From an uncultured Actinomycetota bacterium (GTDB taxonomy: Bacteria > Actinomycetota > Actinomycetes > Mycobacteriales > SCTD01): a DNA stretch of 64,000 nt. Shown here piece after piece: positions 27,492 through 63,015 of this stretch. Position numbers and translations under genes: made by a program. Below the pieces are notes generated by a model, which was not told the DNA's origin, did not search any database, and saw nothing but the letters and a program-made list of their open reading frames with translations. Position 1 is the first letter of the stretch. Every line of letters begins with the position of its first letter. The stretch lies in NCBI GenBank assembly GCA_963761655.1, contig CAVXHI010000010.1, positions 137,400-201,399 on the forward strand. The letters run 5' to 3'.

Positions 27492-28447
27492 AGGGCCGCT
27501 GTCACCTGCTCCGTCAGCAGCCCCGACGCCCGCACCTCGCCGACCACCCGGCCGCCGCCCAGCACCGGCACCTCGGCCACCGCGCCGACGTCGACCCCGA
27601 GCACGCGCAGCGCCGCCGCGAGCACGGGCATCCGGGCGCGCGCCGCTCCGTCCTCGACCTTGAGCGCGACCGCCCCGACCCCCGGGACCGCCACCGCGTA
27701 GACGCCCTCGGCGCCGTCCTTGGCCAGCAGGCCGGGCACCGCGCGCATGACCGCCGTGACGTCGCGCCCGGTCCCGCCGACGAGGTCCGGGTGCGTGCGC
27801 ATGACGTCCGCGACCCGGCGCTCGGGCGTCCCCTCCTCGGCCTCGACGAGCCGCAGGAACGCCCGGGCCAGGCCCGGCAGGGTCAGGGCGTGCTGCGGGG
27901 CGCCGCACCCGTCGACCGCCACGTGCCGGACCGGCTCGCCGGCGAGCTCCCCCACGGCCTCGCGGAGCAGGACCTGCAGCGGGTGGTCGTCGTCCAGGTA
28001 GCCCTCGGTGGGCCACCCGAGCTGGGCGCAGGTCTGCAGCATCGCCGCGTGCTTGCCCGAGCAGTTCATCGTCAGCGCCGACGCCGACCCGCCCTCGGCG
28101 AGGAGCCGGGCGGCGACGTCGTCGTCGAGGGGCAGCATCGCGGGGCAGCCGAGCGCGGCCTCCCCGACGTCGCGGAGCATGCCCCGCACCACCTCGAGGT
28201 GGGCCGGCTCGCCGCTGTGCGACGCCGTCGCGAGCGCCAGCTCCTCCGCCGTCCCCGGCACCCAGCCGGCCCGCAGCATCCCGACCGCCTGCAGCGGCTT
28301 GTTCGACGAGCGCGGGAACACCGGCCGCGTCAGGTCGCCGAGCGCCAGCGGCGTCGTCCCGTCCGGGCGCACGACGACGACGCTGCCGGCGTGGGTGCCC
28401 TCGACGTACCCCGAGCGGACGACCTCGGCGAGGACGGGGAGGGTCAG
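27488..28447 (-). CDS. L-asparaginase II family protein
   Basis: EVVRSGYVEGTH, PRSSNKPLQA, ASHSGE, NCSGKHA, DGCGAP, KDGAEG; apparent CTG start overlapping the rsiG stop. Confidence 0.88.
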   Translation of the reverse strand: MTLPVLAEVVRSGYVEGTHAGSVVVVRPDGTTPLALGDLTRPVFPRSSNKPLQAVGMLRAGWVPGTAEELALATASHSGEPAHLEVVRGMLRDVGEAALGCPAMLPLDDDVAARLLAEGGSASALTMNCSGKHAAMLQTCAQLGWPTEGYLDDDHPLQVLLREAVGELAGEPVRHVAVDGCGAPQHALTLPGLARAFLRLVEAEEGTPERRVADVMRTHPDLVGGTGRDVTAVMRAVPGLLAKDGAEGVYAVAVPGVGAVALKVEDGAARARMPVLAAALRVLGVDVGAVAEVPVLGGGRVVGEVRASGLLTEQVTAAL

Positions 28448-28995
28448 GCGGGACCCTCGGACAGCAGCGCCGACACGTCGGCCTCGCCGTCCCGGTAGCG
28501 GCGGGTGATCTCGGCGCTGCACGCGTCCATGACCTTCTGGACCTCGCGGCGCTTGCCCGAGAGCTTCTGCTCCTCCTCGCTCAGCACGCGCATCGCGTGG
28601 GCGAGGTCGTCGGGCGTGCGGGCGCTGACGTCGGACAGGTCGATGTCGGCGACCAGGGCCTCGACGTAGCGGCGGTGGCTGTCGACGCGGCTCGGCTCCA
28701 CCGTGCTGTGCCGACCGAGGCCGTGCGCGGTGCCCCGGGGCTCGTCGGCGAGGATGCCGGCGAGGTCCTCGACGAGGTTCTTGCCGCTGCCCTCGCGCCG
28801 GTTCAGCTCGGCCCGCAGGACGTCGAGGCGGCCCTGGATGAGGCGCCGCAGGTAGGACAGGTCGACCTCCTCCTGCTCGGCCTCGCCGCGCAGCCCGCGG
28901 ACGTCCTCCAGCGGCGCCGCGCCCAGCCCGGACAGGTAGTCCTCGGACAGCACCCGGTCGATCCGGCGGGTGCCCTTCACGGGCTCGGGCGTCAC
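28444..28995 (-). CDS. rsiG: RsiG/AmfC-family c-di-GMP-binding anti-sigma factor
   Basis: Two exact E-x3-S-x2-R-x3-Q-x3-D motifs (EVDLSYLRRLIQGRLD; EQKLSGKRREVQKVMD); C-terminal EITRRYRDGEADVSALL. Confidence 0.9.
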   Translation of the reverse strand: MTPEPVKGTRRIDRVLSEDYLSGLGAAPLEDVRGLRGEAEQEEVDLSYLRRLIQGRLDVLRAELNRREGSGKNLVEDLAGILADEPRGTAHGLGRHSTVEPSRVDSHRRYVEALVADIDLSDVSARTPDDLAHAMRVLSEEEQKLSGKRREVQKVMDACSAEITRRYRDGEADVSALLSEGPA

Positions 28996-29070
28996 GGGCT
29001 GCTCCTCGATCGGTCGCGCAGGGGGGGTAGCGCCTCCATCGTGTCAGACACGTGCGACACGCCGAACGGC

Positions 29071-29098
29071 TCAATCTGCGCCGCGCTGCTGCCGAGGC
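29071..29098 (+). promoter_or_regulatory. Candidate sigma-WhiG/sigma28-type promoter of the DUF4388 gene
   Basis: TCAA-N16-GCCGAGGC, 37 nt upstream of the GTG, which has a GGGAGG RBS. Confidence 0.6.
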
Positions 29099-29135
29099 TC
29101 CCTGTGCAGCCGCAACGACGACAGGGAGGTCGCAC

Positions 29136-62293: not shown

Positions 62294-62302
62294 GGCAAGA
62301 GC

Positions 62303-62500
62303 CTAGAGACGTGTGCAGCCTCGCGGGGCCTGAGCAGTCCGGCGCACGACCAGGTCCCGTGACTGAAGGCATGAGAAGCGGTCGGCCGGTGTCCCGGTCC
62401 GGAAGGTGTCGAGTGCGACGACCTCGACGCCGTCGTCGAGCAGGCGCTCGCACAGGTGCGACCCGAGGAGACCATCACCACCCGTGACGACCGCCCGCAT
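62303..62500 (-). pseudogene. N-terminal fragment of an NAD-dependent sugar epimerase/decarboxylase
   Basis: [21 protein letters not shown]...VALDTFRTG; no room for the rest of the gene. Confidence 0.65.
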
Positions 62501-62510
62501 GAGCGCGAGG

Positions 62511-62627
62511 CTAGGGGGTCTCCTCTGTGGCCTCGTCAACGAGGACAGCCTCGCTGTCCGGGCCGAGGGCGAGGTCGAGCAGCAGCGAGAGCGGGATGCC
62601 GCTCGCGAGCAGTGCCATGGGGGTCAC
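62511..62627 (-). CDS. Small hypothetical protein (38 aa)
   Basis: GGAGG RBS + [41 protein letters not shown]. Confidence 0.55.
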
Positions 62628-63015
62628 GGGTCCTCCAGAGGGTCGGTGCAGTACTGCTGCATCGGCCCACCCTCGACCTCGGGTCGAGGTCCGAACGGGT
62701 GACACGAGAAACGCGTGGACAAGCCCCGGGAGGCCGTCTTACGCTCGTCGCACACAGAGAGGAGGTGATCCAGAAATTCTTACTTCTGGGACTCGTGAGG
62801 TGGCTGTCCGCTAGGACGCCGTAGCAAGGAACGACCGGATCACCTGCGCTGCGGCGTACGGCGAATCCACGACAGGCACCAGTGACCCCGGGTGCGGCAC
62901 TCGTCCCGCCGCCCTCGATCGTCAAGCTCCGGCCCTACCCCCGGCGACGATCGTGGAAGTACCCGGGGTCTCGCCGTGCCCGGAGCCAGGAGGCGGCTGT
63001 GGCAGCCTGCTGGGC

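Follow-up and report, generated by a model that had tools for sequence, protein, structure and literature searches.

We examined a stretch of DNA of 64,000 nucleotides (nt), hereafter called the window, from an uncultured actinobacterium. The window carries rsiG next to a divergently oriented gene for a DUF4388 protein and, further along, a diguanylate cyclase gene and a surface-polysaccharide island. It corresponds to C10:137400-201399 in a genome of 4.1 Mb (74.5% G+C, 11 contigs, 86.7% complete), whose nearest named relatives are uncultured Frankiales/Mycobacteriales metagenome-assembled genomes (MAGs). To our knowledge, RsiG and its partner WhiG form the sole known complex of a sigma and an anti-sigma factor that is gated by cyclic di-GMP (c-di-GMP), and we know of experimentally established outputs in two genera only. 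We consider it reasonably probable that the window carries the anti-sigma half of an RsiG-(c-di-GMP)-WhiG switch and, in addition, several σ28/WhiG-type promoters in which 16 nt of any sequence (N16) separate the −35 and −10 elements. The features at the centre of this proposal are as follows.

28444-28995, minus strand: rsiG, encoding a predicted twin-motif, c-di-GMP-dependent anti-sigma factor of 183 amino acids (aa) (Pfam PF22802).
29068-29098, plus strand: predicted σ28 (WhiG-type) promoter of the DUF4388 gene, GGCTCAAT-N15-CTGCCGAGGC, in which TCAA begins at 29071 and is followed by N16 and a GCCGA ending at 29095.
29136-31997, plus strand: DUF4388/PATAN gene, divergent from rsiG (Pfam PF14332, 3.9e-16).

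RsiG matched PF22802 in two stretches (1.7e-30, 104.9 bits; cut-off 27). An initial annotation of this DNA had described two intact c-di-GMP motifs, and this was borne out. In the translation, both EVDLSYLRRLIQGRLD and EQKLSGKRREVQKVMD fit the form E(X)3S(X)2R(X)3Q(X)3D, which we took from PMC8325347. The full-length protein is present as a single copy in the genome. A second RsiG-like protein is encoded at C3:476347-477129 (locus L235, 48-830, plus strand), with a partial match to PF22802 (48.6 bits). Its motif ESKVSYWRRILQARLD is intact; its motif EKQLSAYRSALHKRLA is degenerate, with the Q and D replaced by H and A.

The initial annotation also placed a WhiG sigma factor outside the window. 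Two σ28-family sigma factors, rather than one, were found. The first (C2:165314-165991) scored 285 bits with the FliA/WhiG profile TIGR02479, against a cut-off of 189.6, and is not linked to the flagellar cluster. Its paralogue (C11:70300-70965) reached 163.7 bits; it borders a flagellar cluster that contains three flagellin-domain matches, and FlhA is about 2 kb away. The high-scoring type (~285 bits) is present in 54 of 78 family genomes, including non-flagellated relatives. A full-length sigma of the 157-184-bit type occurs in 20 family genomes, and FlhA was also found in 19 of them. From sequence, the C2 sigma is WhiG2-like and the C11 sigma WhiG1-like, which matches the published division between an RsiG-controlled WhiG2 and a flagellum-linked WhiG1 that is free of RsiG (10.64898/2026.01.14.699351). 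The C2 sigma is the candidate partner of RsiG.

The 29071 site sits between the start of rsiG (28995) and a GTG codon at 29136 that is preceded by a GGGAGG ribosome-binding site. In 41 of 41 named loci, GGCTCAAC-N15-(C)TGCCGA(A/G/T) was found 25-114 nt before the start. The promoter was kept in 48 of 48 family genomes, 47 times with N16 and once with N17; the two sets overlap and are not independent. The conservation upstream of orthologues that the initial annotation had proposed to check was borne out for this site. As one would expect of a promoter, the −35 and −10 elements are fixed while the sequence between them is free to vary. The same promoter was present in six distant loci, where RsiG is 48-58% identical and the distance between rsiG and the gene is about 1 kb. 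No FlhA was detected in 36 of the 48 promoter-bearing genomes, and eight of these 36 are 90-100% complete. Hence, a flagellar sigma factor is an unlikely reader of this promoter. The DUF4388 gene is the best-supported and most deeply conserved of the predicted targets, and this is our strongest result.

Residues 85-139 of the 981-aa DUF4388 open reading frame (ORF) matched the MshEN profile NF053729 of NCBIfam (40.3 bits; cut-off 38). The match falls within the DUF4388/PATAN domain, where a tandem 24-residue motif is kept at a level of at least 90% across 35 sequences. We take this motif to be of the c-di-GMP-binding MshEN type. The DUF4388 protein is probably a second c-di-GMP receptor. Much of the remainder is a repeat region of ~500 residues, rich in Ala, Glu and Gln. 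The final ~200 residues of the ORF (31350-31997, plus strand) are rich in Arg, Gly and Pro and resemble an out-of-frame reading, which suggests a frameshift within the repeat region. In orthologues, the open frame of this gene varies from 167 to 1816 aa.

The tandem motif (NF053729) in a PATAN/DUF4388 domain is shared with known PATAN/MshEN systems. Unlike the regulators of those systems, the product of the rsiG neighbour has no ATPase or receiver domain; it has the Ala/Glu/Gln-rich repeat, and its binding of c-di-GMP is predicted. For Synechocystis, an interaction between response regulators of the PATAN kind and the motor of type IV pili is reported (10.1101/2021.06.11.447907). Among the literature matches listed for DUF4388 together with c-di-GMP, none concerns RsiG.

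We next consider the motif in the rest of the window and genome. Genes were called with a codon-bias caller made for this genome, which gave a core genome that is 85.6% coding. Since the caller fails in the polysaccharide island, the intergenic status of both sites there was checked by hand. The window contains eight matches to T[AC][AC]A-N16-GCCGA, where shuffles predict 1.66 and no single shuffle gave more than 6. A tandem coding repeat within the DUF4388 gene (30721-30862) accounts for three of these matches (30721, 30799 and 30838). A further match, at 47469 on the minus strand, was absent from the initial annotation. Genome totals of T[AC][AC]A-Nx-GCCGA, where x is the spacer length, showed codon periodicity only, with ~285 matches at N10, 13, 16, 19 and 22. 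We then counted matches outside called genes, in sense orientation and at most 300 nt from a start. In this upstream class there were 23 sites with N16, 10 with N15, and 2-8 for each of the remaining spacers from N10 to N23. Enrichment in sense upstream DNA was confined to the one spacer length that had been proposed (23 against 2-10).

The conserved sites suggested a sharper form of the motif, with a T before GCCGA. For TC[AC]A-N16-TGCCGA there were 10 sense matches, compared with 0-2 at other spacers. T[AC]AA-N16-TGCCGA occurs nine times in the genome; all nine are outside called genes and three lie within the 64-kb window. At ten control spacers, T[AC]AA-Nx-TGCCGA gave 34 sites, only six of which were outside genes (~0.6 per spacer). 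The N16 motif is not due to chance.

Four strong sites had been proposed in the window, at 29071, 39966, 42221 and 60079 (minus strand). All four were found there, in sense orientation and within real intergenic gaps of ~65-140 nt. The search form of the 2026 preprint is an exact T(A/C)AA, N16 and GCCGA, intergenic and no more than 200 bp before a start codon; the study of Rubrobacter used a like search, for a σ28 consensus within 200 bp of the start codon (PMC8325347). Each of our four sites is intergenic and has an N16 spacer, a GCCGA −10 element and a start codon within 200 bp. The −35 element is exact at three of the four (TCAA at 29071, TAAA at 42221 and TCAA at 60079 on the minus strand). 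The start codon follows GCCGA after 40 nt at the 29071 site and after 10 nt at the 39966 site; for 42221 and 60055 the distance is 37-38 nt. Good ribosome-binding sites accompany the starts downstream of 29071, 42221 and 60055 (minus strand).

Elsewhere in the genome, the motif precedes genes of several kinds. It was found 9 nt before the start codon of a gene for a PilT-like T2SSE ATPase. CheW and methyl-accepting chemotaxis protein (MCP) genes have TCCA-N16 sites 9-10 nt before their starts. Others precede genes for M23, VanY and DPBB wall hydrolases, a B12-binding LuxR-type regulator and a type IV pilin. The pilin, PilT-like ATPase, CheW and MCP genes fit published WhiG regulons and the classical targets of σ28.

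The observations that weigh against an RsiG-controlled WhiG regulon concern the identity of the sigma factor, the cyclase promoter and the island. The second σ28 paralogue was not foreseen by the initial annotation. According to 10.64898/2026.01.14.699351, the WhiG1 and WhiG2 motifs overlap (CTCA-N16-17-GCCGA and T(A/C)AA-N16-GCCGA) and the regulons are inseparable by motif. CTCAA-N16 fits the WhiG1 form just as well if it is parsed as CTCA-N17. The flagellar, WhiG1-like C11 sigma could then read some or all of the sites, above all that of the cyclase. In published two-hybrid work, WhiG1 was not bound by RsiG. The cyclase would in this case belong to a motility regulon, with no RsiG loop and no RsiG gating. 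We regard this alternative as unlikely. It draws on the presence of both sigma factors, the lower-scoring one beside the flagellar cluster; on the company that its type keeps with FlhA (19 of 20 genomes); and on the overlap of the published consensus sequences. CheW and MCP, which are typical flagellar-regulon genes, have the same TCCA-N16 arrangement as the cyclase. Against this stand the 36 genomes in which the DUF4388 promoter is intact and FlhA is not detectable; some of them are 96-100% complete and have no FliA/WhiG matches (E<=1e-40) other than those of the ~285-bit kind.

Spacer length also bears on the choice of sigma factor. WhiG promoters have N16 and true flagellar promoters N15 (PMC7005675). 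In the flagellar cluster (C11:38761-59110), sites resembling σ28 promoters were present in 5 of 15 gaps. All five have N15 and an NCCGAT −10 element, and two precede flagellin genes. Conversely, all four strong sites in the window have N16. Taken together, the N15/N16 register and the non-flagellated relatives favour a WhiG2-like sigma as the reader of the DUF4388 site and, through their motif class, of the 42221 and 60055 sites. Whereas the regulons could not be separated in 10.64898/2026.01.14.699351, here the register and the conservation in non-flagellated genomes give a handle.

The cyclase region contains the following features.

39628-39915, plus strand: PIN-domain ORF without the N-terminal part (PF01850, 1.3e-09, model positions 39-118 of 120).
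39966-39993, plus strand: σ28-type cyclase promoter, TCCA-N16-GCCGAAGA, with GCCGA ending 10 nt before GTG 40001.
40001-41509, plus strand: membrane-anchored GAF-GGDEF diguanylate cyclase (PF00990 GGDEF, 9e-37; GAF).

In the string REGDCAARYGGEEF, the cyclase has a GGEEF active site and, five residues before it, an RxxD I-site. Judging by the frame scores, the PIN ORF stops at 39915 and coding in the frame of the cyclase sets in near 40001; hence, the 39966 site is truly intergenic. Orthologues were sought within the family with the N-terminal 330 residues, the whole-protein matches listed being only GGDEF-domain relatives from other phyla. Similarity to congeners starts exactly at GTG 40001. 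In the window and in 9 of 12 cyclase orthologues, GCCGA is followed after 9-11 nt by an in-frame GTG, which suggests that the cyclase mRNA is leaderless.

We conclude that the cyclase promoter is real and that the sigma factor reading it is uncertain. Of the conservation anticipated for this promoter, the −10 element was kept (9 of 12 orthologues) but the −35 element shifts register between genera. In the window it is TCCA, which departs from T(A/C)AA; in other genera it is found as TCAG-N15 or in an N14 register. The orthologue is present in 12 genomes, 9 of which are FlhA-positive, compared with FlhA in 23 of 77 overall; the relatives are not independent and this is a trend only. For this gene the C11 sigma is a more serious candidate reader, for the orthologue keeps to flagellated relatives in the main and the cyclases of other genera carry CTCA-N16 and GCCGAT(A/G), like the flagellin promoters here. 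However, the cyclase promoter is intact in one genome (G055, 77% complete) in which neither FlhA nor a second sigma factor was seen. The initial annotation had proposed negative feedback, with WhiG transcribing a cyclase whose product re-arms RsiG. A σ28-type site does precede the cyclase; its reader is ambiguous, and feedback between WhiG and a cyclase is already in print. Because the orthologue is found mainly in flagellated relatives and the −35 element shifts, control of the cyclase by RsiG, and hence the loop, is one of two readings.

Remnants resembling toxin-antitoxin genes flank the cyclase gene. Upstream is the PIN ORF (39628-39915, plus strand). Downstream is a minus-strand ORF (41533-42217), beginning MTVCLGTSALVKLL, that is PIN-like by eye and preceded by a 90-aa ORF without a Pfam match. 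Since the congeners cease to be similar beyond the cyclase stop codon, these remnants may mark the point at which the island was inserted.

The island and the features that bear on its regulation are listed below.

42221-42248, plus strand: σ28-type site, TAAA-N16-GCCGATCT, 38 nt before ATG 42283 (ribosome-binding site GGAGGAG).
42283-64000, no strand assigned: surface-polysaccharide island, characterised by partial Pfam matches, composition and the frame track.
42283-42923, plus strand: first island gene, for a WecG/TagA/CpsF-family glycosyltransferase, in at least three frames (PF03808 fragment).
57534-59400, minus strand: DUF4012 protein, with a frameshift near 58680 (PF13196, 8.4e-27).
59409-60016, minus strand: small secreted LPXTG (LPRTG) sortase-substrate protein, from the translation, with a frameshift near 59930.
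60052-60079, minus strand: σ28-type site, CTCAAG-N14-CTGCCGACTC (TCAA-N16-GCCGA), of class T[AC]AA-N16-TGCCGA.
60084-61594, minus strand: chain-length determinant and tyrosine autokinase, in two ORFs owing to a frameshift (NCBIfam).

The island was annotated through Pfam and NCBIfam fragments and by eye. Its genes encode GT1, GT2 and GT4 glycosyltransferases, an ATP-binding cassette (ABC) ATPase, a Wzy-like polymerase, a hexapeptide transferase, the WecG-like transferase, the DUF4012 and LPXTG proteins, the chain-length determinant/tyrosine autokinase and a GDP-mannose dehydratase. The G+C content is 70-73%, compared with 75-79% for the 28-42 kb region. Pfam gave mostly no match to island fragments. 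In the first gene, fragment 42750-42923 matched PF03808 at 7.5e-05 (23 bits, under the 27.4-bit cut-off). The other WecG-like fragments were recognised by eye, and two of them scanned alone gave no Pfam match. The autokinase was identified through NCBIfam, by TIGR01006 for the N-terminal ORF (9e-23) and TIGR01007 for the C-terminal ORF (7.6e-28, model positions 50-204 of 204). The PF13196 match covers model positions 29-144 of 144 at ORF residues 1-116. The LPXTG protein has an N-terminus like a signal peptide, the LPRTG sequence, a hydrophobic helix and a basic tail; its match to the sortase-surface-protein models of NCBIfam is weak (0.0026).

Control of glycan synthesis by the switch had been claimed in the initial annotation. 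Part of that claim stands, as the 42221 and 60055 (minus strand) sites belong to the enriched class and are sense and intergenic. The first lies between the start of the minus-strand ORF (42217) and ATG 42283. The second (60055-60079) starts 5 nt after the autokinase stop (60084) and ends 38 nt before ATG 60016. The comparative part of the case was not borne out. After the C-terminus of the autokinase, no motif was found at the same place in 29 relatives' loci (the thirtieth locus being that of the window itself); a similar small secreted protein follows the autokinase in two of these relatives' loci (L194 and L196), both without the motif. For homologues of the DUF4012 N-terminus, a tblastn match (28-35% identity) was obtained in 9 of 10 relatives' loci, and no convincing site was seen in any of the nine. 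Loci L288 and L293 have scattered motif matches far upstream, and one of the 10 loci was without a tblastn match. At 42221, the congeners G045 and G046 are similar to the window up to the cyclase stop codon and no further. Both lack the island past the cyclase, and the 3.5 kb and 8 kb that come next in them yielded no N16 site. As no relative has an orthologous context, support for the island sites is statistical and positional only.

Frameshifts complicate matters further. The coding frame of the island switches about every few hundred bases, and all Pfam and NCBIfam matches are fragmentary. Single genes can be followed across three frames and nearly every gene is frameshifted. The island may be decayed or poorly assembled, and an insertion or deletion could also alter the apparent 16-nt spacers. 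No sequencing runs were listed for 42000-50000. Broken matches to core genes also occur in other low-contig MAGs of the family, including FlhA in seven pieces in G045, and insertions or deletions in the assembly are therefore a live explanation; in the genome studied here, FlhA is intact.

A different account is that the only true WhiG promoters are that of the DUF4388 gene and perhaps that of the cyclase. The island sites would then be chance matches in AT-richer gaps of an island that is foreign, decaying or badly assembled, and the glycan genes, if expressed, would use ordinary promoters. We think this improbable, though a little less so than reading by the flagellar sigma. The lack of conservation at either island site, the lower G+C content and the fragmentary Pfam matches all agree with it. 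A G+C-based estimate predicts ~5 occurrences of TAAA-N16-GCCGA in the genome, and two were seen. Furthermore, one of the nine sites of the T[AC]AA-N16-TGCCGA class (C11:589439, minus strand) points towards the 3' end of a carboxyltransferase gene in convergent orientation and so has no gene to drive. Conversely, T[AC]AA-Nx-TGCCGA sites outside genes number ~0.6 per control spacer and nine at N16. Both island sites are in sense orientation, 38 nt before a start with a strong ribosome-binding site, in gaps of ~65 nt. The other TAAA-N16-GCCGA site in the genome precedes the pilin gene. The link between the switch and the glycan island is plausible yet unproven, and it is the weakest part of the case.

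Two weaker copies of the motif had also been reported.

47651-47675, plus strand: TCAG-N16-ACCGAG upstream of a GT2 gene, unsupported.
62659-62687, minus strand: TCGA-N17-GCCGATGC upstream of a short ORF and an epimerase-like gene, unsupported.

Both are present at these positions. TCAG-Nx-GCCGA showed no excess at N16 (five sense and six antisense matches, against nine and six at N15), and TCGA-Nx-GCCGA showed 3-nt periodicity only. Since neither motif class has a spacer-specific excess, we rejected both copies as promoter evidence. Additional matches to CTCA-N16-GCCGA were noted at 5289-5313 (minus strand), 11575-11599 (minus strand) and 52460-52484 (plus strand). Those at 5289 and 11575 are within or antisense to called genes; that at 52460 is inside the island.

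Four large, well-coding ORFs (347, 659, 660 and 612 aa), at 33077-38209 and 25458-27296 on the minus strand of the window, matched no Pfam family at E<=0.01. Contig C10 and the syntenic contig of a congener (G045:C10) both end a few kb past the cyclase/island region, a hint of either difficult assembly or variation between strains. In several genera, one contig carries, within ~10-75 kb, the DUF4388 gene together with the orthologue of the cyclase and a polysaccharide cluster of the DUF4012/autokinase kind (G013:C49, G032:C6, G042:C19 and G064:C9; the cyclase was not found in G064). The neighbourhood of DUF4388, cyclase and polysaccharide genes is old, although the relatives do not share the island described here.

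The identities of the genes and the presence, enrichment and conservation of the sites are shown by the analysis above, whereas the direction of c-di-GMP control, the sigma factor that reads each site and the transcription starts are inferred. The mechanism that we propose follows those of Streptomyces and Rubrobacter. When c-di-GMP is high, RsiG would hold the WhiG2-like C2 sigma. As c-di-GMP falls, the sigma factor would be freed and would transcribe its targets. In order of support, the first of these would be the gene for the putative DUF4388 c-di-GMP receptor, divergent from rsiG. The second would be the membrane GAF-GGDEF cyclase, whose mRNA would be leaderless; provided that WhiG2 reads its promoter, a negative feedback loop would result. 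The third would be two operons of the strain-specific glycan island, one with the WecG/TagA-like transferase gene first and the other with the LPXTG protein gene followed by that for DUF4012. The same class of promoter could serve type IV pilus, chemotaxis and cell-wall hydrolase genes elsewhere.

The RsiG-(c-di-GMP)2-WhiG system of Streptomyces venezuelae is alike in its twin-motif RsiG, in a WhiG encoded elsewhere in the genome and in its N16 promoters of the σ28 type (PMC7005675). Its regulon consists of three genes (whiH, whiI and vnz15005) and serves sporulation (PMC7005675). Unlike Streptomyces, the organism studied here has flagella and a second σ28 paralogue, and its candidate targets are c-di-GMP receptor, cyclase, glycan, pilus and chemotaxis genes. 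Rubrobacter radiotolerans, with its (RsiG)2-(c-di-GMP)2-WhiG complex, is a unicellular actinobacterium with predicted WhiG promoters before type IV pilus genes and genes for diguanylate cyclases and phosphodiesterases (PMC8325347). Its RsiG has a single motif and acts as a dimer, and 12 of its promoters are backed by start-site mapping (PMC8325347). In 10.64898/2026.01.14.699351, c-di-GMP enzymes are the most widespread predicted targets, besides type IV pili and chemotaxis, and feedback loops are proposed.

The switch, the N16 promoter, the pilus and c-di-GMP-enzyme targets and the feedback between WhiG and a cyclase are thus already in print. The main text of PMC8325347 has no mention of DUF4388 or polysaccharide, though its supplements may list them. 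Likewise, the terms DUF4388, PATAN, polysaccharide, glycosyl and Frankia are absent from the main text of 10.64898/2026.01.14.699351, whose supplementary tables S4-S6 may list such targets among its 131 target clusters. We did not find the DUF4388 and glycan outputs in these main texts.

A broader interpretation is that rsiG and the PATAN-MshEN gene form a two-tier c-di-GMP module conserved across several actinobacterial lineages. Once freed by falling c-di-GMP, WhiG2 would make a second, high-affinity receptor that sets the state of surface machinery, for instance type IV pili and surface glycan, and in this strain the sigma factor would have captured a new glycan island. We offer this tentatively, as a possibility against which we would still wager. 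If it is true, cell-surface glycan would be a third kind of output, after sporulation and pili, and a new one. The difference between N15 promoters in the flagellar cluster and N16 promoters linked to rsiG could help to separate the WhiG1 and WhiG2 regulons. The deeply conserved, rsiG-linked DUF4388 gene is a candidate for the output of the switch in the many actinobacteria that do not sporulate.

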